From an uncultured Clostridia bacterium (GTDB taxonomy: Bacteria; Bacillota; Clostridia; Christensenellales; UBA1242): a DNA stretch of 58,769 bases. This document shows positions 42,145-58,769 of this stretch, piece after piece (the stretch's first letter is position 1; each line of letters begins with the position of its first letter). Under the pieces are notes generated by a model. It was not told where the DNA came from, ran no database searches, and worked only from the letters and a program-made list of their open reading frames with translations. The translations under genes and the position numbers were made by a program. The stretch is taken from contig CAMVKM010000001.1 of NCBI GenBank assembly GCA_947168085.1, forward strand, positions 1-58,769. The letters run 5' to 3'.

Positions 42145-42178
42145 TAAAAAAAGATTGGATAAAATCCAATCTTTTTTG
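42145..42178. terminator. bidirectional rho-independent terminator
   Basis: A-run, stem AGATTGGAT 42152-42160 / ATCCAATCT 42164-42172, loop AAA, T-run. It lies between convergent genes. Confidence 0.7.
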
Positions 42179-42179
42179 T

Positions 42180-45100
42180 TTAGTTTGTAATTTTGTGGAA
42201 TCCACCCAACAAAACCGCCATTCCGTTGTAGATGAATGCGTTAAGGTGACTTTCGCCATTTTCATCTTCTGGAATGTTGTCCATGTTTGGAGTTAGATCA
42301 ATATGTGGAATCGAAAGAACAACATCTTCATAAACATAGTCTAGTGTGAAATCTCTAATCCAATCATTTGCTCCAAGCATTGCTAAGCTTCCGTTTTGAG
42401 TTTGTGTTAGGAATGATTTAAGTTCACCAGCATCAAGAGTTCCCATTGTTTGAGCAATAAACAAAATAAATTGTTGCGCTGCGGCCGTAAGACTTTCATC
42501 AGTAAATGCTCCTGCGGCTTCCAACATTTCTTCTGTTAGTTGTTCTGCCGCAAAAGCCTTTGCTGCGTTTTGAACACCTTCCGTTTCAATATATTCTTTA
42601 GCTTCTTGTTCTGCTTGTTCTTCAGTTTTGCCGCCGTCAATCAATTCTTGTTTTTTTGTTGCTTTTACTTGATCTAAATAAGCTTCTTTAATTGGTTTTC
42701 TTTGATTTGCAATCACAAGTTCTTTAACTTTTGCTTTTCCTTCTGGTGTTGCGATGTCAAAGTAAGATGCAAGAGCTGGACCAACTCTACCTAAAATTCC
42801 CTGTATTTTTGATTGTGTGGACGCATCAAGACAAGGATGAGTTTCTGCATTTTCGTCATAGTCATAGTAGAATTTTCCCCGAACAGCAGAACTGCCCAAA
42901 CTTGTTGTGTCATCTTTAAAAAGTGCAATAAGGTTAAGACATTGATGTCCTTCAATTTCTTTTAGATAGGTGTAAGAATCTGCTGCACCTGTTACTGGAG
43001 CACTATAAAGTTGCGCCATTGTAACAATTGTCAAAGCTAGCATTTGTGCCATTGAAGGAGCGCCTGGATTTTCTGCGTCACGACCAAATGAACCAAACCA
43101 TGGTTCACCACCATAAACATAACTTTCAAGTGTTGAACCTTTTTCATAAACAAAGATTGGGCGACCTTTGTTTTCCATGCCAGCGTAAGACTGATTTGAT
43201 TTTCCGTGGTCACAAATCATAACCGGACCACCACAACCAATCATAATGCTGTCTTCAATTTCAACTTTTCCTGTGCTTTGGAAGTAAAGAAGTGTGTTGT
43301 AGTTGTCAAATGCTGCAACATTTTTAAATTTTGCCATTGTAACAAGATCTGCTTCATCTTGTGTGAGGTCAACATTTTCATCCATTCCCCTAATCATGTA
43401 GGTTATGTAAAAACTTTGACTGAAATCGTTTACAAATTCAGAAATAATGTTACGGTTTTTAAAACCTATTAGTCCACCAGAAAATGATGTGTCTTCTGAT
43501 TTTTGTGAGTTTCCAAAGAACGCTGTGTTTTGAATAACACATTTTGCTGTTGTATCTAAAGCTTTTGTTGTGTCGGTTGGATATGCTGGATCTGGAATTC
43601 TTTGAACCATTGCCTCACATCCAAACAAACTTGAAAGTCCCAAAATTGGGTCAGCACCTTGTTGTGGAACTGGAGATGTGTCTTCACTAACCATTAAAGG
43701 AAGTCCGTGAATGTAATCACCTGTTTGTTCATTATATTTTAAACTGATGTCAATGTTAAAGTAGTTTCCTTCAAAAACAAAGGTTTCGTCTTCATTAACT
43801 GCACGACGATAAATAATTCCAAATTTTGCTTCATCACTGTTGTCATTTAAATCTGAAGCGTTGTGTCCATAACCAATATCCCAGTTTTTAAGGTGCCCTT
43901 TTGTGCCAGGCTTGCCTTCATCACCCCAAATGTGTGATGCTGGAATGTCACTTGTTGTAAGTGTTAAGTTTTTGTGCAAAATAAGTTTGTTTGCTGAAAC
44001 ATTCAAAAGTCCGTGTTCTGTTTTAAAGTTTGTCCATTTTCCACCAGAGTTAACGTTATCAAAAACTGAAAGCTGTGCCGCATTTTGAATGTTGTAACCA
44101 TTTGTAACAAAAACTTGTGCACTAGCCGAGAAAGAACCACTTGAAATTGTTATTCTAAATTCATTGTCTTCAGCTGCTTTAGTGAATTGAAATTCGTGAG
44201 TGTAGTTGTTAAAAGAAACAAGTGTTTGATCATTTGTTACATCAACAAAGTTTTCACCAACTTTTTGTTCAACTTTCACGGTTGCAACAAATTGTGTTGT
44301 TTGTGTTGTTCTGCCGGTGCTTCTGTCATAACCAGAAACAATTGGAAGATAGAAATATGAGTTGTCTGTTCCAACATAATATTTTGCATTTTCTGTAACC
44401 ATAAAACCTTTGTGTCCATTACTTCCGGTTTTGTCAAAAGTGTTTTGGTTTGTTTTGTTTGTTTCAAAATCAGAGTAGTTTGTGTCTTGATACATTGCTG
44501 AAACCCTAACATCACTAACAACTCTAACAACCACTGGATCAGATGTTACATTTCCAAGTGTTGCTGTAAGGTTTTTCTCTCCAACTGTGCTTGTGTCAAT
44601 GTCACTAAACTCAAGGTTTGGTTCACTTGATTTTAAAAGAATTTTTGTTAGTGGGTCGCCGTCAAGGTCATTACCCTCGTAAGTTGCAACAACTTTTACA
44701 TTTGCTGTGCTGTATGATGAGTTTAAGTTTACTTGTTTTACAACTGTTTCTTCATCAATTTCAAGACTTAAAACATCCCCAAAAACTTTGATGATTTGTT
44801 CACTGTAAACTGAGCCGTCTTGTATTGACTCAAAAACAACTCTCTGTTCACCAGGAGAACTTATGCCAAGCCCTGTAACTATGTAGCCATCAACATCATC
44901 TTTGTCTTTTGTTAAAACAATCATTTCACCATCAGCTCTTTCCCCTGTTACAACAACACGAGAAAAATCAATTTCGGTGTTTGCTTTAATTTCTGTTGGA
45001 AAATTAGAAACACTAACGATATTTACAATTTTGTTTTCAAAAACATAAACTTTTGCTGTTGTTGAAACACCAGAGTAGCTAACAACAAGTTCACGATATT

Positions 45101-45650
45101 CTTTTCCATCTGGATCGAACTTTTGTTCATCCTTTTTAAAGTTGATTGTTAAACTTGATGTGGCAACATCAATTTGATAATCTTCAGTGGCAATGTACTC
45201 ATAACTTGCAACAGCAACTATGTGCGAAGTGTCATAAGTGTCAAGTTCGTCTTCCAAAATCTTTGATTTAAAACTGTCTGCTCTTAAATCGAGTGATTTT
45301 AGGTTACCATAAACTTTTACTTTAACAACTGGAGTTGTAAAAAGTTTTCCATCAACAGTTATGCTTGCGGAAAGATCTGTTTCACCCAAAGTTGAGGTGT
45401 TTATTTGAGAAAAAGTGAATTCTCCGTCAAGTTTTGCATCTGCCTTTTTAACATATTTGGCATAAACCTCAATGTTTGATGTGTCATAATTGCTGTCTTT
45501 TACTACAGCTGTGGCATAAGTGCCATCTTTTATGTAAATGCTTTGAATTGCGTCGTCACTTGGATTTTCACCACAAGCTGTGAAAACTGCCATAAACAAA
45601 CACAAAAACAAAAAAGCAAAAATTGAGCTTAGGCTCTTTGTTTTGGACAT
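42180..45650 (-). CDS. large (1,156 aa) lipoprotein of unknown function: N-terminal Ig-like modules, central beta-helix-like region, C-terminal helical region
   Basis: AAGGAG RBS. Lipobox LFMAVFTAC-G. About four ~100-aa modules end in VKVYG / KVYVF / IKVFG / VRVVS. The central region contains FSGGLIGF (GLUG-like). The C-terminus is rich in E/K/A. Confidence 0.85.
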   Translation of the reverse strand: MSKTKSLSSIFAFLFLCLFMAVFTACGENPSDDAIQSIYIKDGTYATAVVKDSNYDTSNIEVYAKYVKKADAKLDGEFTFSQINTSTLGETDLSASITVDGKLFTTPVVKVKVYGNLKSLDLRADSFKSKILEDELDTYDTSHIVAVASYEYIATEDYQIDVATSSLTINFKKDEQKFDPDGKEYRELVVSYSGVSTTAKVYVFENKIVNIVSVSNFPTEIKANTEIDFSRVVVTGERADGEMIVLTKDKDDVDGYIVTGLGISSPGEQRVVFESIQDGSVYSEQIIKVFGDVLSLEIDEETVVKQVNLNSSYSTANVKVVATYEGNDLDGDPLTKILLKSSEPNLEFSDIDTSTVGEKNLTATLGNVTSDPVVVRVVSDVRVSAMYQDTNYSDFETNKTNQNTFDKTGSNGHKGFMVTENAKYYVGTDNSYFYLPIVSGYDRSTGRTTQTTQFVATVKVEQKVGENFVDVTNDQTLVSFNNYTHEFQFTKAAEDNEFRITISSGSFSASAQVFVTNGYNIQNAAQLSVFDNVNSGGKWTNFKTEHGLLNVSANKLILHKNLTLTTSDIPASHIWGDEGKPGTKGHLKNWDIGYGHNASDLNDNSDEAKFGIIYRRAVNEDETFVFEGNYFNIDISLKYNEQTGDYIHGLPLMVSEDTSPVPQQGADPILGLSSLFGCEAMVQRIPDPAYPTDTTKALDTTAKCVIQNTAFFGNSQKSEDTSFSGGLIGFKNRNIISEFVNDFSQSFYITYMIRGMDENVDLTQDEADLVTMAKFKNVAAFDNYNTLLYFQSTGKVEIEDSIMIGCGGPVMICDHGKSNQSYAGMENKGRPIFVYEKGSTLESYVYGGEPWFGSFGRDAENPGAPSMAQMLALTIVTMAQLYSAPVTGAADSYTYLKEIEGHQCLNLIALFKDDTTSLGSSAVRGKFYYDYDENAETHPCLDASTQSKIQGILGRVGPALASYFDIATPEGKAKVKELVIANQRKPIKEAYLDQVKATKKQELIDGGKTEEQAEQEAKEYIETEGVQNAAKAFAAEQLTEEMLEAAGAFTDESLTAAAQQFILFIAQTMGTLDAGELKSFLTQTQNGSLAMLGANDWIRDFTLDYVYEDVVLSIPHIDLTPNMDNIPEDENGESHLNAFIYNGMAVLLGGFHKITN

Positions 45651-45697: not shown

Positions 45698-45726
45698 AGT
45701 ATACCACAAAAAAAATGTTTGCGCAA
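45698..45726 (-). promoter_or_regulatory. candidate internal promoter for the 1,156-aa lipoprotein gene
   Basis: On the minus strand: TTGCGC (45726-45721), 17-nt spacer, TGgTATACT (-10 at 45703-45698). The -35 lies inside the terminator stem. Confidence 0.4.
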
Positions 45727-45743
45727 CCAAATTACGCAAACAT
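45708..45743 (-). terminator. rho-independent terminator between the 175-aa gene and the lipoprotein gene
   Basis: On the minus strand: ATGTTTGCG (45743-45735), 11-nt loop, CGCAAACAT (45723-45715), then T7 (45714-45708). Confidence 0.6.
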
Positions 45744-45751
45744 TTTAAACA

Positions 45752-46279
45752 TTATCTTTCAAAGTTTATCACTGTTATCCAAACAACTGCAGAAGATCCA
45801 TTTCTTGAACTGTTTTCTGGTGAAATAGTAAGTTTAAACGCAAAAAGTTCAGCCTCTTCACTTGTTCCAGGATCATTTATCACCAGTTGCCCGCGGTCAA
45901 ATGACACCACACCGCTTTCCTGAAAATGCTTCATGTTGTCATCGGGAATAAATTTTATTTTTTCTTCAGTTGACGCAACATCTCCACTCATGTATTTTAC
46001 ATGTGGCAAAATGGTAAGTGGCAAATACTTGTCACCTTCATAAACAAGGTGTTCATCATAAAAGTAAATTTGAAGTTCATATTCGTTGTTTGCTCCTGGT
46101 TCGGTTTTTTCTTTCTCAAAAATGTCAAACATTTCAGTTTTTTCCGCTTCAATTTTAACCGTTATTTCATCAACATATTTAACTTTGTCCACCACTTTCA
46201 CAGAAAGGCCAAAAAAGCCTACCCAAAAAATAGACACTAAGTAAAGTATTACAATAATGGCAATTGTCGTTTTACTCAT
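45752..46279 (-). CDS. small N-terminally anchored extracytoplasmic protein (175 aa), unknown function
   Basis: One TM helix (IAIIVILYLVSIFWVGFFGL) and then a beta-rich domain. AAGGAAA RBS lies inside the end of the upstream gene, 2 nt after its stop. Confidence 0.75.
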   Translation of the reverse strand: MSKTTIAIIVILYLVSIFWVGFFGLSVKVVDKVKYVDEITVKIEAEKTEMFDIFEKEKTEPGANNEYELQIYFYDEHLVYEGDKYLPLTILPHVKYMSGDVASTEEKIKFIPDDNMKHFQESGVVSFDRGQLVINDPGTSEEAELFAFKLTISPENSSRNGSSAVVWITVINFER

Positions 46280-46281
46280 AA

Positions 46282-48021
46282 TTATTTTTCCTTGTAATAA
46301 ATTTTTATTCTTCTAATTAAAAACATTATTCTAACAACGGCAAACAAAAGGCCAATGAAAAATATTTTTACAAAAGTTGTTTGAATGTTTTCGCCCATAA
46401 AAAAGTAAGCCACAAAAGTAAAAAGCACCGACACAACAAAGCCTAAAATGATTGACTTTGATTCGTTTGGATTTTTTAATTGTTTTCCTGATGTTTGATA
46501 AAGCCTGTTTTGTGGATTCATAAGGTCAAATTCAAGGCTCCAACAAGCATGGGCAATATACACAAAAAACATTGCAAAAAACAAAAGTGTTGCCTGACCT
46601 GCCGTGATGCCTGCATAGGCTCTTAAAATTAATGCACACGCCAAAATACTAATCGAAAAAACGCAAATTTGAAAAATTGGTTTTGCAAGCAAAATTTTTG
46701 CTGGATTGGTTGGCATTGTTTTAGTTAAATAACCCGAATTGCCTTCTTTGCTAAACAAACTTGCAAAGTTTGACGAACTGGACAGCATTAAAAGCATTAT
46801 GATTAAAATGTTAAACACAAGTGCCATAATTTGCCCTGAAAGCCTTTTGTCCATTGACGCAAAAATTTGGTTTTGAAGGAGTATTAAAATTGGAGTTATT
46901 ACAGCCATGGCCAAAATTCCATAAAACAAATTTGATGTTCTAAAAATTTGTTTTGTTTCTCCCCAAGCAACCGACACAAATGTTGGTTTTTTTCTGTTTT
47001 TCTTGTTTTTTATGTTAACTTTTCTTTTATATTCAAATGGTGTGCTTGCCATTTTTAAAAACAAAGGTTTTGCCAAAAGATTAATTAAAACTAAACACAA
47101 CACAATTGTTCCAACCAGCACAGCAAAAACAACAAAGTTTTGCAAATTTATTGGAATGAAATTTGAGTTTGAGTAAGATGTTCCAACCATAAACTGAATC
47201 AAAAAGTCAAAAGGAGCAAAAATTGAAGCAAATGCCGCCAAAAAGTCTTGAATGTTCCAGAAAATTTGTCCCCAATCTCTAACAAGATCGATGTCCGTTG
47301 GTATTGCCAAAATAAGTTTCACAACCCCGTAGGCAACTGCAGCAATCATTGCCGCCAGCACAACAAATTCAAGCCCCCTGTGTTGTTTGAACGCAATTGA
47401 AACAAACATGGATGGAATAGACAGAAATCCACTTAAAACCACCATAAAAAGTGTTATGAAAGCAACAATAAACACAATCCACAAAAAGTAAACAAATGGT
47501 AGACCCATAATAAGCCCATAGGCAATCATCATCGGAAGCATAAACGAACAGTTTTTAATAAGTTCGTAAACATAGCACACAACCATTTTAGACAAAAATA
47601 TTGTGCTGTTTTTAACGGGCATTGTTAAAAGAACTGGGTTGTCTTTTGAAAAGTAAAGTGTTGATGTTACATTTGTTAAACAAGACACAAACGAAAGTAG
47701 CAGCATCAGTGTCATCAAAATTAAAAACACTCTAAAGTTAAAAACTTGAATAAATGAAAAGATACAAAACTTAACAGCCAGCAAAAACAAAACATAAATT
47801 ACTGCAGTAACAGCCACAACGCCCACAATTATCCAAATAATTTTAAAAATTGTTTTCTTTTTTCTGGTTTTAAAAGACAAATCCATCTTGTCTTTAAGTT
47901 GCATACAAACAAGCGGATACAACTGAGTTTTTAGAAAAATCCAAAGCTTTAAAAAGAAGTTTTTAAAACCCTTACTCATTTTAACAAAAAACCCATTCTT
48001 TGTTTTTTGTTGTTCCATCAC
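46282..48021 (-). CDS. polytopic ABC-exporter-type permease (579 aa)
   Basis: About 12 hydrophobic segments and no soluble domain. The start (GTG 48021 or ATG 48018) overlaps the TGA of the upstream ABC ATPase gene. Confidence 0.8.
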   Translation of the reverse strand: MMEQQKTKNGFFVKMSKGFKNFFLKLWIFLKTQLYPLVCMQLKDKMDLSFKTRKKKTIFKIIWIIVGVVAVTAVIYVLFLLAVKFCIFSFIQVFNFRVFLILMTLMLLLSFVSCLTNVTSTLYFSKDNPVLLTMPVKNSTIFLSKMVVCYVYELIKNCSFMLPMMIAYGLIMGLPFVYFLWIVFIVAFITLFMVVLSGFLSIPSMFVSIAFKQHRGLEFVVLAAMIAAVAYGVVKLILAIPTDIDLVRDWGQIFWNIQDFLAAFASIFAPFDFLIQFMVGTSYSNSNFIPINLQNFVVFAVLVGTIVLCLVLINLLAKPLFLKMASTPFEYKRKVNIKNKKNRKKPTFVSVAWGETKQIFRTSNLFYGILAMAVITPILILLQNQIFASMDKRLSGQIMALVFNILIIMLLMLSSSSNFASLFSKEGNSGYLTKTMPTNPAKILLAKPIFQICVFSISILACALILRAYAGITAGQATLLFFAMFFVYIAHACWSLEFDLMNPQNRLYQTSGKQLKNPNESKSIILGFVVSVLFTFVAYFFMGENIQTTFVKIFFIGLLFAVVRIMFLIRRIKIYYKEK

Positions 48022-50483
48022 TCACGCCCCTTTTTGTTTTTTGTTTGTTTTGTTTTTTTGTTTTTAGGAGCTGATTTTTCTGTTTTTACAACTTCTGCAT
48101 CATTGTTTTTGTCGTCGTTACCCTCAGAATCCACTTCATTTTGTGTTACATCTGCTTGTTCAATCGTTTGCATATAAAAATCTTCAAGCGACTTTCCAGA
48201 TTCTTCAATTTCTTTAACACTTGTTGTAAGCAAAATGTTTCCCTTTTTGATGATTGCAATGCGGTCACAAATGCGTTCAACAACATCAATAATGTGACTT
48301 GAAAAGAACACAATGTTTCCATTTTTCGCATGTTGTTTCATTGTTTCTTTTACTTGAAAAATGCTGTTTGGGTCAAGCCCAGTTAAGGGTTCATCCAAAA
48401 TCCAAACTTTTGGATTGTGCACAAGTGCAGCCATAATTGCAATTTTTTGTTTCATTCCATGAGAATATGTTTTTATTTGATTGTCAAAAGCACCCACAAG
48501 TTCAAATTTTTCAACCAAATCATCAATCACTTTTGTTCTGTCTTGCTTTGAAACGCCATAAAGGTCGGCAATGTAGTTAATGTATTCTCTGCCAGTAAGT
48601 TTTTCATACAAAGCATAGTGGTCTGGAACAAATCCAATTTGCCTTTTTGCTTCAACACTTTGAGTTTTTGTGTCAAATCCACAAACTTCAATTTTTCCGC
48701 TTGTGTGAGGTTGAATTCCAACAATACTTTTTATGATTGTCGATTTTCCTGCACCGTTTGGGCCCAAAAATCCAAAAATTTCACCACCATGCACTTCAAG
48801 GTTTGCATCTTTTACTGCAAACACTTTGCTTGAACCATAGCGTTTGGACATGTTTTCCAAAATAAGTTTGTTTTTATTTTCTGGTGTCATAGGTTCTTTT
48901 TTACTCCTTCCATTAAGTTTTTCAGTTAAGGCAAGTTCATCTTGTTTTATAATTTGTGTGCGTTTTTTCATGTCTGCCCAGCCATCTGTTATTGCATAAG
49001 CTTGTTCATACAAAAACCAAACACCAAGCCCAAGCAACACATAAACCAAGAAAAACAGCACTTGATAAACAGGATAAAACGTCAGCGTTACTCCACTTAT
49101 GGTAAAACTAAATGTTATGTCTCTAAGCCTTTCAGCCCACGTTCCAAGTTTGTCAGCAACAAAATCACTGTTGATAAAGAAAAAGTCGGTTGATCTGCTT
49201 ACAAGTCCAGCATTATAAAGCCCCGTAAACAGCGCGTTTAAAATTAACACTAAAACAAAGTAACCTAAAAATCCCAGCATTGAGTAAACAAATTGTTTGA
49301 GTTTTGGTTTGCCAAACATTTGAAGTGACACAAACAAAATTGGCATAAAAAACGCAATGTAGTGATTGATGTAAAACATAACAAGGCTAGATTCAAAAAT
49401 GTTGTAACCATCACCATAGTTTGGCATAATCATTGCCAAAAAGGCCCCCAAAACATTGATGAAATATGTGAAGTAGAAAAACCTTTTCATGTTAAATATA
49501 AGCACAAGCGGCATGATGTACATTGCAGTGTTACACAGATGAAGTGGCCACAAAGTTGGATCCATAAAAGTGTCGATTCGTCTTGTTGTTGAAAATGAAA
49601 TCAATGTTCCAAGACAGATAAAAAGCAGCATAAACTTTCGTTCAAAAAAGTTTTTGTTTCTTAAAGCATAGTGTAGTGCCACTGGAATTAGCAAAGCAAG
49701 ATAAAGAATCATTCGGTGTGTGATTGTAAAGTTTTTTGCTTTGTAAATTTGATGTGATTCCCCAAAAAGCCCCTGAAAAAAATATGGTGGCATGGTTGAG
49801 AGAAAAATTGCAATCACCGCAAAAATTTCAAACCAATAGTTTTTAAAGAATTTTCCAATCAAAACAAAAATTTGCTTAATGTAAAACCATGTTGCACCCC
49901 AAAATGATTTTTGTCCAACATATTTTTTCCAAAGTTTTGGTTTGTCTTGTTTTTGTTTGTTTTTTGAAAACAAGTTTTTCCAATCGGTTGTTGTGATTAA
50001 AACAAACAAACTGTAGCCCAAAGCAAAACCAATTTCTAGTGCAAACAAAATTCCTTTTGCGTGCAACACATTGGCCATGCCCTCGCCCAAAATTGCGTCT
50101 AAACCAAGCCACAAACAAGCAGTGTTAAAAATTGCAGCCGGAAGACTAATGAATTTTGCATAATTTTTAAGTCTTTTTAAATCAAAAAATCCATAAAGCA
50201 TTAAAACAATTGCGCCGGCAAGGCCCGTCCACATCAAAAGAAGCATCAAAACATAGGAAGCATTTGTGCCTTGACTCACAAGATTTTGAACATAGTCTTC
50301 TGAAAACATAAATCTAACAGCAAACAGTGCTGCCATTATTAACGACAATGTTTTTGTAAGGCTCCATTTTTTTTGTTGTCCATTTTCAATGTTTTTTGAC
50401 TTTGATTTTTTAAAAATCAAAAAACTTACCCCAAAAGTAAGCAAACAAGAAAGAGCCAAAAAAACATAGTACAAATAAAGCAT
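48018..50483 (-). CDS. fusion protein: ~500-aa polytopic membrane domain (YwaF/TMEM164-like, PLHLC motif) + ABC ATPase domain + Lys-rich tail
   Basis: GGGAG RBS. Walker A GPNGAGKST (48738-48764), signature YSHGMKQK, Walker B VWILDEP. W-P-L-H-L-C-N at 49533-49547 within the N-terminal TM-rich 500 aa. Confidence 0.9.
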   Translation of the reverse strand: MLYLYYVFLALSCLLTFGVSFLIFKKSKSKNIENGQQKKWSLTKTLSLIMAALFAVRFMFSEDYVQNLVSQGTNASYVLMLLLMWTGLAGAIVLMLYGFFDLKRLKNYAKFISLPAAIFNTACLWLGLDAILGEGMANVLHAKGILFALEIGFALGYSLFVLITTTDWKNLFSKNKQKQDKPKLWKKYVGQKSFWGATWFYIKQIFVLIGKFFKNYWFEIFAVIAIFLSTMPPYFFQGLFGESHQIYKAKNFTITHRMILYLALLIPVALHYALRNKNFFERKFMLLFICLGTLISFSTTRRIDTFMDPTLWPLHLCNTAMYIMPLVLIFNMKRFFYFTYFINVLGAFLAMIMPNYGDGYNIFESSLVMFYINHYIAFFMPILFVSLQMFGKPKLKQFVYSMLGFLGYFVLVLILNALFTGLYNAGLVSRSTDFFFINSDFVADKLGTWAERLRDITFSFTISGVTLTFYPVYQVLFFLVYVLLGLGVWFLYEQAYAITDGWADMKKRTQIIKQDELALTEKLNGRSKKEPMTPENKNKLILENMSKRYGSSKVFAVKDANLEVHGGEIFGFLGPNGAGKSTIIKSIVGIQPHTSGKIEVCGFDTKTQSVEAKRQIGFVPDHYALYEKLTGREYINYIADLYGVSKQDRTKVIDDLVEKFELVGAFDNQIKTYSHGMKQKIAIMAALVHNPKVWILDEPLTGLDPNSIFQVKETMKQHAKNGNIVFFSSHIIDVVERICDRIAIIKKGNILLTTSVKEIEESGKSLEDFYMQTIEQADVTQNEVDSEGNDDKNNDAEVVKTEKSAPKNKKTKQTKNKKGRE

Positions 50484-50514
50484 ATCAAACTCCCATGAAA
50501 AACACTTTGTTTAC

Positions 50515-50543
50515 ATTTTACCCTATTTTTTTAAAAAAAGCAA
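50515..50543 (-). promoter_or_regulatory. candidate promoter of the ABC operon
   Basis: On the minus strand: TTGCTT (50543-50538), 17-nt spacer, TAAAAT (50520-50515) preceded by TAGGG. This is the same TAGGGTAAAA element seen twice in the giant-gene leader. Confidence 0.45.
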
Positions 50544-50715
50544 ACATTTTAACTAACAATACCCAAAAAACAATATCAAAATTTAAAAAAACAGCACAAT
50601 TTTAAAGAAAATAAATTATTTTTTTAAAAAAATTTGTTTTTTTGGTGTTATTTTTTAATTTTTTTCAATTTTTTCACTTAAATTTTTACAAATAACAAAT
50701 TTGTTTTTCATAAAC

Positions 50716-50744
50716 TTGTTTTTTAAAAATGTTTGTGTTATAAT
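50716..50744 (+). promoter_or_regulatory. sigma-A-type promoter with extended -10 for the M16 peptidase gene
   Basis: TTGTTT 50716-50721, 17-nt spacer, TGtTATAAT (-10 at 50739-50744). AAGGAG at 50757-50762. Confidence 0.55.
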
Positions 50745-50770
50745 AAAAAACAAATTAAGGAGAAAAACTT

Positions 50771-52086: not shown

Positions 52087-53676
52087 TTAATCACCAAGAT
52101 CAATGTAAACAGCAACATTAACAATAATGTTTAAATTTTGTCCATTGATTGTTTGAGTAAATGTTCCTGTAACATGAGCAACTGGCTCGTCTGGATTAAA
52201 GCTTGGGTCATCTACATTTGCAGGAATAAAGTTTTCAAAGTTTTCATCTGTGATTTCAAGAACAAGTTTTTGCTCTGTTTCTGTGTTTTCATATGTTTGA
52301 TAAGATCCATTAACATAGTAAAGACCTAAAACAACACCATCATCAAGAGTCCAAACTCTTTCCCCTGTTTGAGCATCTGTTTCTGCAACAATGTAAACAT
52401 CTGTTATGATGTTTGCAGAAAGCACTGGGTTGTTTTCAGCATCCCAAACATAAGTCATAACTTTTGTGCTTTGTCCTTTGAATGTGATTGTAACTTCTTG
52501 GAAGCCAAGCACAGTTTTGTCAAAGCCAGTAATTTGAATTAATGGGTTAAGTTGTGGAACGTCAGTTGTGCTAACATTAAGTGGAATTTCGTTTGAGTCA
52601 TATTCCATCATTCCAAAACCAGATTGAACTGTTCTGTAAGTGATGTAACCATCAGCGTAGAATTCTGTTCCTTTTTCAATGTAAAGAACACTGTCTTCCA
52701 AATATTGTCCATAGCTAATGCTTGTTGGTTTGTTAAGTGGCATGTCATATTTGTCAGCATAAACATAAATTGAATATGTTTTTGTTACTTCTTCATCTTT
52801 TGCATTTTCAAATGTAAGTGTAACAGTTTGAAGTCCAACTTCGCTTAAATCAAGTCCAACAATGTTTTTAAGCTCTGCTGCTGGAATATAAGAAGATTGT
52901 GATCCATCATCAGTCAAGAAAAGCATTCCAATTGCTGGTTTGTAAGCATAAGTTTCATCTTCCAAAAATTCTTCAACGCCTTCTGCTGTTGAAAGATCAA
53001 ATTGATCTGTTTGAAGCATTGCAAAATCACTTACATAATTTGGTTTTGGCGCTTCAATTCCAAACATTTTATACTCAATTGCTTCAGCGGCAAATTGAGC
53101 TTCAACCAATTCTTTTTCTGTGTAAGTTTTGATTGTGTCGTTTGCTTTAAATGGTTTTGCTGCTGTTTGAAGAAGAATTGGATTATCATCCATCATTCCA
53201 AACAAAACTGCTCCATTAAATTTTTTGATTTCCATCATTCCAAAAGCAAGATATTGATTGTAAATTGCCATTTCTGGGTTTGTTTTGTCCCAAGTTTCTG
53301 ATTTCACAAGTTTTCCATATTTGTAGGCTTGCTGAGAAAGTGAAAAGAATTGTCCTGTTTGAATGTTTCCATTTTTGTCAAACACAATGTTTCCAGTGAT
53401 TGTCATCACATTTCTTTCAGCTTTTCCAAGGTAATCTGTTGCATTAGTCATTTCAAAAAAGCCATTTGTGTAATACTTGAGTTCATAGCTTAATTCTGAA
53501 GAAACTTCATCATCATCATACTCTGCAAAACTTGCTGTGTAAACGTTTTCAAGAGTTCCTGGCTTGTCTGGTGCTTCGTTACAAGCGCTCATAAAAATTC
53601 CAACACTTGCCAAAAGCACAATGCTAAAAAATCCAACAAGCAAACTCTTTAAACTAAATGTTTTTGTTTTGTTCAT
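52087..53676 (-). CDS. lipoprotein of unknown function (529 aa from Met16)
   Basis: AAGGAG RBS before ATG 53676, and lipobox GIFMSAC-N. No family recognised. Confidence 0.8.
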   Translation of the reverse strand: MNKTKTFSLKSLLVGFFSIVLLASVGIFMSACNEAPDKPGTLENVYTASFAEYDDDEVSSELSYELKYYTNGFFEMTNATDYLGKAERNVMTITGNIVFDKNGNIQTGQFFSLSQQAYKYGKLVKSETWDKTNPEMAIYNQYLAFGMMEIKKFNGAVLFGMMDDNPILLQTAAKPFKANDTIKTYTEKELVEAQFAAEAIEYKMFGIEAPKPNYVSDFAMLQTDQFDLSTAEGVEEFLEDETYAYKPAIGMLFLTDDGSQSSYIPAAELKNIVGLDLSEVGLQTVTLTFENAKDEEVTKTYSIYVYADKYDMPLNKPTSISYGQYLEDSVLYIEKGTEFYADGYITYRTVQSGFGMMEYDSNEIPLNVSTTDVPQLNPLIQITGFDKTVLGFQEVTITFKGQSTKVMTYVWDAENNPVLSANIITDVYIVAETDAQTGERVWTLDDGVVLGLYYVNGSYQTYENTETEQKLVLEITDENFENFIPANVDDPSFNPDEPVAHVTGTFTQTINGQNLNIIVNVAVYIDLGD

Positions 53677-53745
53677 TTTTTTCTCCTTTACAAAATTTTT
53701 GTGATTTTTTTTAGTGTCCAAAAATTTAATGCTCTCACGATTATT

Positions 53746-53995: not shown

Positions 53996-56900
53996 CTAGC
54001 TAGCAACTCTTCCAACAATTGTGTTGTTGATGTTTTGTCCTGATTTCGCAGAACTTGAAGTGTTATTTCCAGTTACAACAACACTAGCATCTGCAGTTGT
54101 TCCTGTTGTGTCAACTGTTTCCCAAGTGCAACCAATAACTTGGCCAGCATCTCTATCTGCATTAACTGTTGAATCTGTAGCTGAACAGTTTGTCACAAAT
54201 GAAGCTGAATAGATGTTTGTGTAATCACCAGAAATATATCCTATTAAAGCACCTGCTTTATCTCCACTTTCATCATCATTTGCAAACACACAACTAACGT
54301 CAACATTAATTACAGAACAGTTGTTAATTGTTGAGTGAGAAACAAATCCAGCAAGAGCTCCAACCCAATGATTACCAACAACTACTGCACCATCTATATT
54401 CAAATTTTGAATTACTCCACAAACCACTTGACCAAACAAGCCAACTCCAGCAGAGGCACCTTCATGCTCTCCTCCAAGAGTGAAGTTTGTAATTTTCAAG
54501 TTTGAAATTGTATGGTTTAAACCATCAAATGTTCCCATAAATTTAGGTCCTGTAATTCCTTGAGTTATGTTACCATTATCACATGTTCCATAACCAATTG
54601 GAACCCATTCCTGATTGTTTAGATTAATGTCTGCATCAAGTTTAACAACTTTTCCTTCAAAACTTGTTCCACCATTTACTGCATCTCTAATTGCTTCAAG
54701 TCCAGCAAGTGAGTTAATGTGCATTGTTGTTGCTGTGTCATAAGCGCTTGCAAGACTTGCTGCTGTGTTAACATAAGCAACAACTTCGTATTGCGTGTTG
54801 TTTGTTATGGTTGGAACTCCACCAGGATAATCTGCATCCAAATCCCAAACGATTTCATCACCTGCATTGATGTTAAGTGTTCTTTTTCCAATCTTTCCTG
54901 AAATTGTTCCTGTTGCATTAATTACAACATCTTCGCCAATTGTTGTGTTTCCGCTTCTTGCCAAAATTCCAATTCCGTCGGTAATGTTAAATGTTCCGCC
55001 GTTGATTATAATTGTGTCGTTGTTTGCAACACAAACACCACATGCAATATAGCCTGTTGATGTTATACTACCATTAAATGTTCCATCATTGATTGTAATT
55101 GTGTTTCCACCATAATCTGCACCACCACTTGTGCCAACAACAAAGTTGTCTGTTGACGCAAATGTTCCACCATTAATTATAACCTCTGAGTTTGTGTAAG
55201 GAACAATACAAGTTTCTACAGCTTCAATTTGTGCATTATTAACAACTAATGTTGCATCTTCAACCACCATAATTCCAGTTTTCCCTGCTGTTCTTTCAAT
55301 ATAATGCCCACCATTAAGTGTTACAGTTGCATATCTAATATAGAAAATGTTTCCAATTGAAGCATCAATTGTTCCATTTGCAATTACAACATCAATGCTG
55401 TTATTTTCTGTTCCATGAATCCAAAGAGCATCCTCTGAACATGTTGATGTAAATGTGTGTCCATTAAGGTCAAGAGTTAGTGAACGTGAAACATCCATTC
55501 CATCGGCTCCAGAAGTAATTGAAATGTCTGCGCCAAGTTGAACAATGTCAACACTTGTGTCTGCAAGTGCTGCAGTGAGTTCTGCTTCAGTTGTAACCAA
55601 AGCTGAATCCAAAACAAATGTTACATCAATGTATTCATAATATTGAACGCCGCCAGTCATTTCTGTTGGGATTGGGAATTTAATGTAAACACTTGCCTTT
55701 CCGTTTGCAACAGCAAGTTGCAAGTTTTGATTTTCAACAACAATTTTGTCTTGTCTTGCTGCTGTGCTATACATAAAGTCTTCAAATTGACTTGAAAAAT
55801 CTGTAAAGCTTGCAACATCACTTGTCACTGCTTCCATTCCGTTTGGAAGGTAGATTGTAAGTTTTACTAAGTCTCCAATTGCATATGGAAGTTCAGTTTC
55901 TTCTGTAGTAACAGTAAAGCTGTAGTTGTCTTTTGAGTCCACTTTTTCATAGTCATCTGCAAGTGTCATGGCAACTGCATTTGTTTCTTGTTCGCCTGTG
56001 CTGTAGGCCATGTCAAACACGTTTGCCAAAATGGCGAATGCCCCGCCAGTTACTGCGCCAACATAGTTTGTTGTTTCTGCAATTGTAATTTTAAACCAGT
56101 AGTTTGCAAACATGAGTTCGTTTCCTAGGTTAAATGCCCAAACATTAGCAAGTTCTTGTGGTGCAAGACTAACTGTTTGCCAGCCAAATCTTTGTTTAAC
56201 ATCTTCAGAAACGTCTGGGTCATTCATAAGAGCATCAACATCGGTGTAGGATGTTTGTGGATCTCCACCAAGATATTTTTCTGCAATTTGAATTGTTGCT
56301 TCGCTGTTTCCAACAGTTGCAAGATATTGAATTACAGCATTACTTTGCCATGCAAAGTTTGTTGTTCCGCTAATTTCAATGTTGTTTGTTGTTGCTTTTG
56401 TAATTGACCAGTTAAACACAACAGAGCTTTCGCCAGCCCATTCACAGTTGTTTGTGTTTGCAATTTCGTAGGTTAATTGGTAGGCTCCAACAGTTGTTGC
56501 TTGTTGATCACCAGTAACACTAAACCATGCTGGTTGTTGACCATAAAGATTAACTTCAGGTCCTTGTTCTTCACCTGTGTAAACAAAGCTTGTTTCTCCA
56601 CTGATTGTTGGTTTTGTAAGTGTTCGTTTTCCAATTGTCCACTGAGCTGTTTGATTTGTTGAAACTGGTGTTTCCAAATCCCAAGCATAGTTGTCTGTGT
56701 CAATCAAAGCAAAAATCATGTTAAATGTTCCAGCGTCTGTTGATGAAAGTATTGAACCTTCTGCAACTGTGCTCATTTTGTTAACATCAAAACCAGTCCA
56801 TTCTGGTGTTTGTTGTGTGCCATCATAGGTAAGTGCTTTGTTTTGAACAGGAACTGCAACTTTTGCAACTGCAATTGTCCAAGCATCTTCAATTGTTTTT

Positions 56901-58769
56901 GTTAAAATTGGTGTGCTTTCATTAAATCCAAAGCAGTAGTTGTCTGTTGCTGTGAGAACAATGTCATAACTTCCTGCATTTGTTTCTGAAGCTTCTGCAA
57001 TTGTGTATTGTCCTGGTGTGTAGTCCCAAGTTGGTGATTGTGCTTGACCTGTGTAAGTTAATGTTTCGCTTTGAACAGGGTCAGCATTTGTAACAACTTT
57101 TCTTGTGATTGTAAGAGTTAATGTAACGCTTTGAGCGTCGCCACTAAACTCATAGTTTGCCTTTGGTGTTAATGTGATTGTGTAAACGCCTGCATTTGTT
57201 GCACTCCATGTTCCACCATTAAATGATGAACCAGTTGTTGGTGTGCCTGCGTTCATTTTGTCACCATCAAAGTTTTTGATTGTGATTGCTTGACCAATTT
57301 CGTCAAATTCAACAGAAAGTGTTGTTTCGTCGTTTGTAAAGCTTGGTGCTGTGATTGCAACTTTTGCAACAGTAAATGGCAAGAAGTCACTTGTAACAGC
57401 GTTGTAGTTTGTGCTTTGAGCAATTGTGATTTTTGCATAGTATGCTCCTGCATTCACAATTTCTTCAAGCGCTAAAGGTGTGCCTTCGTTTGTATCATAG
57501 AAAGCATAAGAAATTGCACCAGTTGTGCTGATTGCTCCAACAAAGGTTGAATTTTCAAGTCCGCTAATTAAGTTTTCACCAGTGTAGGTTGCGGCTGCTG
57601 CGCTTGGTGTAAATTCATGAATTTCGTTGTTCAAACGAGTGATTTGCCACTCAATTGATTTTTGTGTTGTTGTGTGGTCTGTCCACTCATAGTTTGCTTT
57701 GTCAATCAAATCAATGTAAACTGTGTAGTTTCCAGCGTTTGTTTGTTCTTGATAATTTGTTACATCAACAATTGTTGAATCATAAGTTGAAAGTGTGATG
57801 TTTTGTGGGTTTCCGTTGTAAGGGAAACTTGTTTGACTTGTTGCTGTAACCAAAGCAACTTGTGCTTTTGAAATTGTAAAGCCAAGTTCTGTTTCAAGAG
57901 CGTTGTAGCTTTCTGTTCCTGCAATAGAAACAACAACAACATAGTTTTCCACATTTACAGGTGCTTGAGCTAAAGGATCACCAATTTTTGTGTAGGTTTG
58001 TGTTTGAACATCATACATTGCATTATAATACGTGTATGTGCGCGCGTCTCCACCAAACACTGCAGTTCCTGCTGTTACTGTTACTGCCGTGCCATCATAG
58101 ATTTTTGATGTTGCTGTTGGCTCAGTTGTCCAACTGTTGTTTGCTTTAACAATTTGGAAAAGAATTTCTTCTTCAAGTCCATCATAATCAGCTGTTTCTG
58201 CAACTGTAAACACTGCTTTGTAGTGTCCAACTGCTGTTGGTAAATCACTTAACAATGTTTCGTAGCTCCAAGTTTGTGATTGCTCGTTGTAAGTTCCTTC
58301 ATAAAGTGAAACTGTTGGCTCACCCTCAGCAGCATAAAGTGCTTCTCCACGAACAAGACCGTAAGCCTCTTCTGTTGCTTGTGTTCCGTAAACAATTTCT
58401 GCATTAATGCTTGGCTGTGTTCTCCACTCATTGTCTTGAGTTGTTTTTTCAATTTGCATTTCAAATGAAATTGAAACAGTTGATGGCTCTTCACCTTCTT
58501 GATGTGCCCAAACATAGTTTGTGATTCCTGTTGGGTTGTTAAGTTTGATTTCAACTTTGTAGAATGCTGCTTTTTTTGCAGACAAAACAAGTTTTGATGC
58601 AGCATTATTTGCTGGAACAACAGTTCCTGTCATGTCTTGTGTTGGTGCATATTCAGCATCTTGTGTTGCTTTTGCAAAAACTGCGTAGGTTAATGCTTCT
58701 TCATCAAAGCCCAAAACATCAAATGTTTTTTCTTTGCCATCATATGGTTTTACTGCTGTTGTTTCATCA
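53996..58769 (-). CDS. 3' part (at least 1,590 aa) of a second large repetitive surface protein: MBG/YDG-like Ig repeats, right-handed beta-helix, C-terminal GLUG module; the 5' end is outside the window
   Basis: The frame stays open from 58714 to the window edge (...DETTAVKPYDGKEKTFDVLGFDEE...). Repeat units have N-x-W-T..P......YDGT and YTG...P signatures. Beta-helix turns are encoded at ~54755-55450. The GLUG module (GVGLFGQV, VGALAGFV, AGALIGYI) is encoded at ~53999-54730. There is no TM or LPxTG at the C-terminus. Confidence 0.9.
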   Translation of the reverse strand, partial: DETTAVKPYDGKEKTFDVLGFDEEALTYAVFAKATQDAEYAPTQDMTGTVVPANNAASKLVLSAKKAAFYKVEIKLNNPTGITNYVWAHQEGEEPSTVSISFEMQIEKTTQDNEWRTQPSINAEIVYGTQATEEAYGLVRGEALYAAEGEPTVSLYEGTYNEQSQTWSYETLLSDLPTAVGHYKAVFTVAETADYDGLEEEILFQIVKANNSWTTEPTATSKIYDGTAVTVTAGTAVFGGDARTYTYYNAMYDVQTQTYTKIGDPLAQAPVNVENYVVVVSIAGTESYNALETELGFTISKAQVALVTATSQTSFPYNGNPQNITLSTYDSTIVDVTNYQEQTNAGNYTVYIDLIDKANYEWTDHTTTQKSIEWQITRLNNEIHEFTPSAAAATYTGENLISGLENSTFVGAISTTGAISYAFYDTNEGTPLALEEIVNAGAYYAKITIAQSTNYNAVTSDFLPFTVAKVAITAPSFTNDETTLSVEFDEIGQAITIKNFDGDKMNAGTPTTGSSFNGGTWSATNAGVYTITLTPKANYEFSGDAQSVTLTLTITRKVVTNADPVQSETLTYTGQAQSPTWDYTPGQYTIAEASETNAGSYDIVLTATDNYCFGFNESTPILTKTIEDAWTIAVAKVAVPVQNKALTYDGTQQTPEWTGFDVNKMSTVAEGSILSSTDAGTFNMIFALIDTDNYAWDLETPVSTNQTAQWTIGKRTLTKPTISGETSFVYTGEEQGPEVNLYGQQPAWFSVTGDQQATTVGAYQLTYEIANTNNCEWAGESSVVFNWSITKATTNNIEISGTTNFAWQSNAVIQYLATVGNSEATIQIAEKYLGGDPQTSYTDVDALMNDPDVSEDVKQRFGWQTVSLAPQELANVWAFNLGNELMFANYWFKITIAETTNYVGAVTGGAFAILANVFDMAYSTGEQETNAVAMTLADDYEKVDSKDNYSFTVTTEETELPYAIGDLVKLTIYLPNGMEAVTSDVASFTDFSSQFEDFMYSTAARQDKIVVENQNLQLAVANGKASVYIKFPIPTEMTGGVQYYEYIDVTFVLDSALVTTEAELTAALADTSVDIVQLGADISITSGADGMDVSRSLTLDLNGHTFTSTCSEDALWIHGTENNSIDVVIANGTIDASIGNIFYIRYATVTLNGGHYIERTAGKTGIMVVEDATLVVNNAQIEAVETCIVPYTNSEVIINGGTFASTDNFVVGTSGGADYGGNTITINDGTFNGSITSTGYIACGVCVANNDTIIINGGTFNITDGIGILARSGNTTIGEDVVINATGTISGKIGKRTLNINAGDEIVWDLDADYPGGVPTITNNTQYEVVAYVNTAASLASAYDTATTMHINSLAGLEAIRDAVNGGTSFEGKVVKLDADINLNNQEWVPIGYGTCDNGNITQGITGPKFMGTFDGLNHTISNLKITNFTLGGEHEGASAGVGLFGQVVCGVIQNLNIDGAVVVGNHWVGALAGFVSHSTINNCSVINVDVSCVFANDDESGDKAGALIGYISGDYTNIYSASFVTNCSATDSTVNADRDAGQVIGCTWETVDTTGTTADASVVVTGNNTSSSAKSGQNINNTIVGRVAS

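Follow-up and report, generated by a model that had tools for sequence, protein, structure and literature searches.

The DNA analyzed here, called the window throughout, is a stretch of 58,769 nucleotides (nt) of contig CAMVKM010000001.1 (assembly GCA_947168085.1) from an uncultured Clostridia bacterium, numbered along the forward strand. We focused our attention on a four-gene cassette of its minus strand, in which an ATP-binding cassette (ABC) ATPase is fused, within one open reading frame (ORF), to a membrane domain of the YwaF/TMEM164 type, and is followed by genes for a separate permease, a small membrane-anchored protein and a predicted lipoprotein. The four genes, with protein lengths in amino acids (aa), transmembrane segments as TM, AlphaFold2 models as AF2, immunoglobulin as Ig and the basis of each assignment in brackets, are:

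48018..50483, minus strand: fusion gene, 821 aa, with an N-terminal extension, a YwaF/TMEM164-like core, a helical stalk and an ABC ATPase (ORF, Pfam/NCBIfam, AF2, homologues)
46282..48021, minus strand: permease gene, 579 aa, polytopic with about 12-13 TM, PF16949/PF09847 family (ORF, junction, Pfam matches of orthologues, AF2)
45752..46279, minus strand: small gene, 175 aa, one N-terminal TM anchor and a predicted extracytoplasmic Ig-like (Big_2-type) domain (ORF, alignment, Big_2 matches of orthologues)
42180..45650, minus strand: lipoprotein gene, 1156 aa, fourth gene of the cassette (synteny, lipobox)

The first three ORFs (821, 579 and 175 aa) are found where a preliminary description of this DNA had placed them, on the minus strand, and the TGATG/GTGA overlap and the 2-nt gap that it read between them are present. 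The junction between the fusion and permease genes reads GAG-TGA-TG-GAA, the TGA stop overlapping the GTG or ATG start of the permease gene, with a GGGG Shine-Dalgarno sequence just upstream of that start. At the junction between the permease and small genes, a TAA stop, the 2-nt gap and an ATG follow one another. Both junctions are compatible with translational coupling.

The fusion protein can be divided into the following parts, the last of them containing the nucleotide-binding domain (NBD):

49779..50483, minus strand: N-terminal extension, aa 1-235, about six TM, N-terminus predicted outside (AF2 helices, positive-inside counts)
48999..49778, minus strand: YwaF/TMEM164-type core, aa 236-495 (PF14808, TIGR02206, invariant columns)
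48894..48998, minus strand: predicted cytoplasmic helical stalk, aa 496-530, tethering the NBD (AF2 secondary structure)
48138..48893, minus strand: ABC NBD, aa 531-782, of the DrrA/ABCA/EcsA (ABC-2) subtype (Pfam, NCBIfam, PDB, Foldseek)

In Pfam, the core matches PF14808 (TMEM164) over aa 256-480, with an E-value of 2.5e-15 and a score of 57 bits, the gathering cutoff being 25; in NCBIfam, it matches TIGR02206, labelled 'TMEM164-related integral membrane acyltransferase', over aa 251-420, with an E-value of 2.5e-15 and 56 bits, under the cutoff of 75. As the first threshold is passed and the second is missed, the protein is a member of the Pfam family and a divergent subfamily by the NCBIfam standard, so that the YwaF/TMEM164 assignment, which had been offered as tentative, can now be made from a profile match. 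A precomputed PF14808 match is also found on all 120 homologues listed. The AF2 model of the fusion protein, built on an alignment of 57 sequences, has a mean predicted local distance difference test score (pLDDT) of 85, with values mostly between 85 and 97 in the membrane part, and places 13 TM helices ahead of the NBD, within the range of about 12-14 anticipated earlier. The N-terminal extension (aa 1-235) gave no consistent family match in Pfam scans, and it is also present in unfused relatives. Its derivation as a copy of the YwaF core, or as kin of the permease, was considered and rejected, with hhalign probabilities of at most 1.2%.

The preliminary description had also noted that the membrane region does not look like a classical ABC transmembrane domain. 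In agreement with this, Pfam scans of the fusion protein and of the permease returned no ABC_membrane (PF00664) or type I/II importer domain, and a profile search of the PDB with the 57-homologue alignment gave matches in the NBD alone and none for the first 520 residues. A standard ABC transmembrane domain at the N-terminus, which has neither profile nor PDB support, was accordingly discarded. Comparison of the complete fusion model with PDB structures by Foldseek likewise gave NBD matches only. Pfam scans of the fusion protein found no match to DUF1405, the branch of the superfamily to which the Bacillus subtilis protein LhaT belongs.

Two motifs of the core are of particular relevance, namely WPLHLC317NTAMY, with C317 (codon 49533..49535) at the start of helix 316-330, and FYINH374Y, with H374 (codon 49362..49364) within helix 365-386. 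In addition, H256/R257 are invariant, and a conserved 45-aa loop with a beta-hairpin spans aa 425-470. The TMEM164 study describes a superfamily (AIG1, TMEM164, GPC1, YwaF, YpjA) with a 6-TM core, a Cys, Ser or Thr nucleophile in TM2 and an invariant His in TM4, the catalytic pair of human TMEM164 being C123 (TM2) and H181 (TM4); the spacing of C317 and H374 is 57 aa, versus 58 aa for the human pair. The conserved Cys and His residues whose presence the preliminary description had suggested checking are indeed there, as C317 is kept in 97 and H374 in 95 of the 102 family representatives (at most 50% identity), fused and unfused alike. Judging from these residues, the enzyme domain looks active.

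The NBD has to lie in the cytoplasm, which fixes the direction of the last TM helix as outside to inside. Topology was then assigned by counting back through the AF2 helices, with K/R-rich loops as inside markers (aa 25-39, 166-213, 275-278, 387-394 and 494-530). In the resulting model, the N-terminus of the fusion protein would be outside and its C-terminus inside; C317, H315 and H256/R257 would sit at the outer ends of helices, H374 about 10 residues below the outer surface, and loop 425-470 outside. The Cys/His active site is thereby predicted to occupy the outer-leaflet half of the membrane.

The C-terminal part of the protein is the ordinary ABC NBD that had been recognized before: Pfam ABC_tran (PF00005) matches aa 558-700 with an E-value of 3.5e-28, NCBIfam models of the DrrA/GldA type match aa 541-801, and Walker A (GPNGAGKST, 574-582), the signature (YSHGMKQK, 673-680), Walker B (WILDEP, 694-699) and the H-switch (H730) are invariant in 57 homologues. 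A check of ATPase features found Walker A, Q-loop, signature, Walker B with its catalytic Glu, D-loop and H-switch all present. The top PDB sequence matches are the lipid transporters ABCA3/4/1/7, followed by TM0544, Rv1218c, NosF and LptB, and the top Foldseek matches are EcsA, TM0544 and TM1403, the best of them being the EcsA of B. subtilis as modelled together with RasP, an intramembrane protease. By these motifs and matches, the protein has an intact ATPase, whose subtype is the one that goes with ABC-2 (type V) permeases and lipid exporters. Beyond the NBD, the C-terminal tail (aa 783-821; 48021..48137, minus strand) consists of about 40 lysine/glutamate-rich residues, is predicted to be disordered (pLDDT below 50) and varies in length among homologues.

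The best NCBIfam models for the NBD are DrrA, GldA and RbbA, with CcmA-type, lantibiotic-protection ATPase and PmtA/C models also matching. On such names, the cassette could be a common ABC-2 pump that expels drugs, bacteriocins or antimicrobial peptides or gives immunity to them, comparable to DrrAB, BcrAB, LanFEG or PmtCD, with the fused membrane domain and the downstream genes as lineage-specific accessories, and PmtD and Rv1217c do appear among the structural matches of the permease. However, all NCBIfam scores are far under the equivalog cutoffs; the NBD reaches none of the named ones and is hence a member of no named transporter. Moreover, the clustering of 33 loci described below found no producer, regulator or two-component genes conserved near the cassette, and no known efflux or immunity pump gives a role to an acyltransferase dyad, an Ig-like protein or a lipoprotein. 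We regard such a pump as very improbable.

Full-length matches to the fusion protein, at 50-75% identity and all with both PF14808 and PF00005, fall into more than 120 clusters (90% identity). They come from Clostridia/Christensenellales metagenome-assembled genomes (MAGs) and are named 'YwaF family protein' or 'ATP-binding cassette domain-containing protein' at NCBI. A scan of one genome per GTDB species located the fusion in 66 species, all of them uncultured MAGs, from human, ruminant, rabbit and chicken guts, and a tblastn search of plasmids with the YwaF-like core gave no match. Overall, the fusion system is limited to, and widespread in, uncultured Christensenellales-like gut Clostridia. 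An exhaustive HMMER search of 1.84 billion representatives with aa 1-530 returned 214 relatives only, in two length classes, of about 720-830 aa with the NBD and about 450-500 aa without it, the extension being present in both. One relative of 1062 aa (P0131) has about 450 extra N-terminal residues, so that its YwaF-like core begins at residue 451, and retains the NBD.

The preliminary description had raised the concern that the fusion might be an assembly or frameshift artefact joining two genes. Such an error would be suggested by the overlapping split genes that exist in distant relatives, and by an 'unfused' protein of 480 aa (P0122) that is 83% identical to a fused protein of 768 aa; in P0122 the gene call is probably truncated, and scanning metagenomes with this protein gave no match. 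Against this, the same unbroken ORF is present in the more than 120 clusters, from independent assemblies, and in the 66 species-level genomes. Moreover, the junction in the AF2 model is one continuous, confident helix (aa 471-523), in which the K/R-rich stalk extends the last TM helix and reaches the NBD. The artefact is excluded by these results and is left with a negligible probability.

The remoter unfused proteins are genuine and occur repeatedly, on several contigs, and the genomic context of six of them was inspected. Two of the six lie in split cassettes (L070, 8001..15118; L073, 2018..8911), in the order YwaF-like gene, a 243-246-aa NBD gene overlapping it by a few bases, 12-TM permease, small Ig-like anchor protein and large lipoprotein. 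The L070 NBD shares 56% identity with its fused counterpart; the L070 permease, called PF16949, fits the hidden Markov model of the permease family with an E-value of 1.5e-85, and the Ig-like anchor protein, which has three Big_2 repeats, fits that of the small-protein family with an E-value of 1e-10. The mature parts of the split-cassette lipoproteins are barely or not at all similar to that of the window. The other four are solo YwaF-like genes with unrelated neighbours (L069, 8001..9392; L071, 7001..8458; L072, 119..1534; L074, 2675..4069), whose products, of about 460-490 aa, likewise have the N-terminal extension and the Cys/His dyad. The solo and split forms indicate that the enzyme was recruited into an ABC operon in one lineage, and that the adjacent genes were fused later. 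As read from these gene orders, the link between the YwaF-like gene and the ABC genes is older than the fusion event.

The permease belongs to a family on which nothing was found in the literature searched under PF16949. This domain is detected in 25 of 33 permease orthologues (best E-value 6e-12), and many homologues carry precomputed PF16949 and/or PF09847 matches; the window permease scores 19.1 bits against the PF16949 gathering threshold of 25.7, and by its relatives it is a divergent PF16949/PF09847 member. Its AF2 model (pLDDT 87) is all-helical, with about 12-13 TM and almost without extracytoplasmic domain, and neither the permease nor the fusion protein has a Pfam match to FtsX/MacB (type VII) domains. 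The best-ranked Foldseek matches of the permease model are nearly all type V domains (NosY at the top, CcmB with a TM-score of 0.54 on the target, ABCG16, PmtD, Rv1217c, Wzm, ABCG2 and KpsM), none of them significant (best E-value 0.34), and this ranking agrees with the NBD subtype. An internal 6+6 duplication is not detectable at the sequence level with hhalign; the fold matches suggest two ABC-2-like halves, and the permease is probably a single-chain pseudo-dimer of such halves, each preceded by a conserved amphipathic helix, at about aa 37-49 and aa 347-361. As for the 175-aa protein, described before as anchored and beta-rich, it has one N-terminal TM segment, which is conserved in the orthologues, and a Big_2-like Ig domain is recognized in 3 of 33 orthologues.

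In every related locus with enough flanking sequence, tblastn and ORF maps revealed the order fusion, permease of about 550 aa, small protein of 136-177 aa and large protein of 700-1100 aa, the last of these being homologous to the 1156-aa lipoprotein at 42180..45650. When all ORFs of the 33 loci of at least 16 kb were clustered, exactly four families were present in 33 of 33, with strand and order unchanged throughout, the next commonest neighbour family occurring in 6 loci only. The conserved order of the fusion gene with a separate 12-TM permease and a small anchored protein, which the preliminary description had proposed to verify, is therefore found in 33/33 loci. The three-gene extent given there falls one gene short, as the conserved unit comprises four genes and the lipoprotein gene lies just outside it.

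The product of gene four carries the lipobox FTAC26 in the window. Of 31 orthologues, 28 also have a lipobox, as do the large proteins of both split cassettes, and the lipobox Cys is nearly invariant in the alignment, so the product is a predicted lipoprotein. This character persists even where the mature part has diverged beyond recognition. The window lipoprotein has N-terminal Big_3-like Ig repeats; Big_3 is found in 24-25 of 31 orthologues. Behind the repeats lies a conserved domain of about 600-850 aa, at roughly aa 290-1150, that has no Pfam or PDB match.

With both surface proteins in place, one may ask whether the cassette works by mechanotransmission, as in NosDFY, FtsEX or CcmAB, with ATP hydrolysis serving not to carry a substrate across the membrane but to drive a conformational change in the Ig-like protein and the lipoprotein that would, for example, activate or load a surface enzyme or adhesin, and with the YwaF-like domain as an anchor, sensor or accessory enzyme. 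NosY is the top structural match of the permease, NosF is among the NBD matches, and the best structural match of the NBD is EcsA, modelled with RasP. The partners of NosDFY are a beta-helix periplasmic protein and a lipoprotein, as known from NosDFYL structures, and a weak Beta_helix match is seen in 2 of 31 lipoprotein orthologues, a very weak hint. Nevertheless, the permease model has almost no extracytoplasmic domain through which force could be transmitted, and the strict conservation of Cys and His argues for catalysis over a scaffold. We consider this explanation improbable.

Three other large ORFs of the window encode putative surface proteins. A single ORF at 9254..38683 (minus strand) encodes 9809 aa, with an N-terminal hydrophobic anchor and with no Pfam match at an E-value of 1e-4 or lower in its first and last 3000 residues. 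Upstream of the cassette lie the genes of a 1572-aa protein with a Pectate_lyase_5 'adhesive' domain (53996..58714, minus strand) and of a 544-aa lipoprotein with a weak Big_3 match (52087..53721, minus strand). None of the three is syntenic with the cassette in other genomes or has the conserved domain of the cassette lipoprotein, and a link between the cassette and the giant neighbours was rejected, having neither synteny nor a common domain behind it. The suggestion that the system serves neighbouring large surface proteins therefore stands for one syntenic lipoprotein family and falls for the 9809-, 1572- and 544-aa proteins; nor does a co-occurrence with giant adhesin genes hold, the giant neighbours not being conserved with the cassette.

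The remaining features of the region are:

50484..50770, minus strand: AT-rich intergenic region 5' of the fusion gene, shared with a divergent M16 peptidase gene (sequence)
50628..50599, minus strand: promoter-like site upstream of the fusion gene (consensus match alone)
45712..45746, minus strand: strong terminator-like hairpin, with a 16-bp stem and then a T-run, separating the small and lipoprotein genes (consensus scan)
42147..42177, no strand assigned: perfect bidirectional terminator-like hairpin closing the cassette and facing a convergent metallophosphoesterase gene (consensus scan only)

A GGGAG ribosome-binding site precedes the fusion gene in its AT-rich upstream region. Long structured gaps between the small gene and the lipoprotein gene also occur in the close relatives L001, L003 and L005, and the 45712..45746 hairpin was seen only in the close clade of the window, where it may be an attenuator that sets the ratio of lipoprotein to transporter. 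The same gap measures just 15-20 nt in about 12 of 30 related loci, so that the four genes would be co-transcribed there. The G+C content of the window is 29-39%, and its neighbouring genes are ordinary Firmicutes-type chromosomal genes (PlsY, Der, NrdR, ZnuA and the M16 peptidase).

Comparison with known systems indicates what is shared and what is not. With the TMEM164/YwaF family, part of the ATGY superfamily of membrane acyltransferases and hydrolases, the fusion protein shares the 6-TM core profile and a Cys/His pair of the same spacing and helix positions, but it adds an extension of about 6 TM, the conserved 45-aa loop predicted outside and a covalently attached ABC ATPase. The literature searched contains no bacterial YwaF member with a known substrate or function. 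LhaT (YpjA) of B. subtilis N-acetylates lipoprotein N-termini on the outer face of the membrane with a lipid-linked donor that has to be flipped outward by a flippase left unnamed in that study (PMC12345273). It is an integral membrane acyl-transferase of the same superfamily, but belongs to the DUF1405 branch and is a stand-alone 6-TM protein with no ABC partner, whereas the fusion has a candidate translocator attached.

ABC-2/type V systems (Wzm-Wzt, TarGH, ABCG, ABCA, NosFY, CcmAB, PmtCD, Rv1217c-Rv1218c and EcsAB) resemble the cassette in NBD subtype, in the gene order of NBD before permease with translational coupling and, at non-significant E-values, in the permease model, including that of the single-chain 12-TM Rv1217c. 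They differ from it in that the cassette NBD bears a 530-aa N-terminal membrane enzyme and the permease comes from the uncharacterized PF16949/PF09847 family. YbbAP-TesA of Escherichia coli is an ABC machine that extracts hydrophobic molecules from the membrane and passes them to a hydrolase (PMC12646458), and the cassette would resemble it in feeding membrane lipids to an acyl-processing enzyme. The YbbAP permease, however, is of type VII (FtsX/MacB fold) and bears large periplasmic domains, and the enzyme, an SGNH hydrolase, is soluble, periplasmic and bound non-covalently, whereas the cassette has an all-helical permease and an integral membrane enzyme domain fused to the ATPase.

MprF-type proteins, in which a lipid synthase is covalently joined to the flippase that moves the lipid between leaflets, offer a comparable arrangement, but their flippase is not an ABC protein and uses no ATP, and their enzyme domain is cytoplasmic and unrelated to that of the fusion. 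Each domain of the cassette thus comes from a known family, and cooperation between ABC proteins and enzymes is already known (YbbAP-TesA, EcsAB-RasP). What is new is an ATGY membrane acyltransferase covalently fused to an ABC ATPase that keeps a separate permease, together with its constant linkage to an Ig-like anchor protein and a lipoprotein and the restriction to one clade of uncultured gut Clostridia. The preliminary description did not recognize the arrangement, and neither the fusion architecture nor the cassette is described in the literature searched; in public databases, the proteins are listed under generic names.

Domain identities are taken as established here, as are the conserved catalytic and ATPase residues, the conserved fusion, the conserved order of the four genes and the occurrence of split forms; from them we infer a stoichiometry, an active-site topology, a direction of transport, a substrate and a role for the lipoprotein. 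The cassette could encode a transporter of ABC-2 (type V)-like kind with a membrane enzyme built into its ATPase subunit, that is, a lipid translocator hard-wired to an outward-facing transacylase, to which we tentatively assign a probability of roughly 45%. Two copies of the fusion protein would dock their NBDs on a single 12-TM pseudo-dimeric permease, with one YwaF/TMEM164-type domain flanking each side of the permease and held by the helical stalk of about 50 residues. Powered by ATP binding and hydrolysis, the permease would bring an amphipathic lipid to the outer leaflet or lift it out of there, the candidates being a phospholipid, a glycolipid or a polyprenyl-linked acyl carrier. The Cys317/His374 dyad would next take the acyl group as a thioester, and the enzyme would finally hand it to a surface acceptor, the likeliest being the co-encoded lipoprotein, for instance its N-terminal cysteine, which the TM-anchored Ig-like protein may position.

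The lipoprotein is favoured among acceptors because its lipoprotein nature is the one feature of gene four that survives divergence, and because LhaT, a member of a sister branch, uses a lipid-linked donor to acylate the N-termini of lipoproteins outside the cell; even so, we hold it unlikely to be the specific acceptor. Equally doubtful is the fuller picture of a self-contained extracellular protein-acylation machine, in which the permease would flip a lipid-linked acyl donor, the fused transacylase would modify the N-terminus of the dedicated lipoprotein and the Ig-like anchor would present that lipoprotein.

Several observations weigh against a translocator wired to a transacylase, or against parts of it. 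Solo long-YwaF genes without ABC neighbours imply that the enzyme needs no transporter. A general lipoprotein-modifying enzyme would need no dedicated lipoprotein gene next to it, so that the lipoprotein may be a functional component instead of the substrate. As LhaT (DUF1405) is in a branch other than that of YwaF, its substrate is not simply transferable. In addition, the depth of the active site derives from predicted secondary structure, not from coordinates, the likeness of the permease to type V domains is statistically non-significant, and the hairpin at 45712..45746 parts the lipoprotein gene of the window from the first three genes.

An alternative is lipid remodelling or export, with the lipoprotein as an accessory and not as substrate, where the YwaF-like domain would re- or trans-acylate membrane lipids and the permease would flip or export the product, or else import scavenged host or dietary lipid captured by the lipoprotein and the Ig-like protein. 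TMEM164 is itself a lipid-to-lipid transacylase acting on lyso-ether lipids, the NBD is nearest to the ABCA lipid transporters, the solo enzyme genes fit a general lipid substrate, and the large conserved domain of the lipoprotein could bind or process a ligand. Yet such a role leaves unexplained why a lipoprotein is constant at position four, whatever its passenger domains, and Pfam and PDB searches detected no lipid-binding or lipase family in it; we find this explanation rather unlikely. The broader proposal of the preliminary description, a machine for the remodelling or export of lipids or lipoproteins, is plausible on the present analysis, and the LhaT precedent (PMC12345273) strengthens this functional reading.

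Bacterial YwaF-type proteins form a large family, which hereby gains a testable context, and their human relative TMEM164 is an acyltransferase linked to ferroptosis. The fusion moreover offers a natural topology reporter, as its cytoplasmic NBD would place the Cys/His site of the family in the outer-leaflet half of the membrane, as judged from secondary structure, and the ABC superfamily gains an architecture in which an enzyme-bearing NBD is combined with a separate single-chain permease. A transacylase joined to an ATP-driven lipid translocator is a candidate answer to how an energized acyl donor reaches the outer face, and the lipoprotein and lipid chemotypes of such gut bacteria shape their recognition by the host. 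If the fuller picture of extracellular protein acylation is true, the cassette would hold the first ATGY-superfamily acyltransferase hard-wired to the transporter that supplies its donor, and would point to the kind of protein able to fill the flippase step of LhaT-type extracellular acylation. A new pathway to a lipoprotein chemotype would then also be defined in abundant gut Clostridia, and recognition by TLR2 might be affected.

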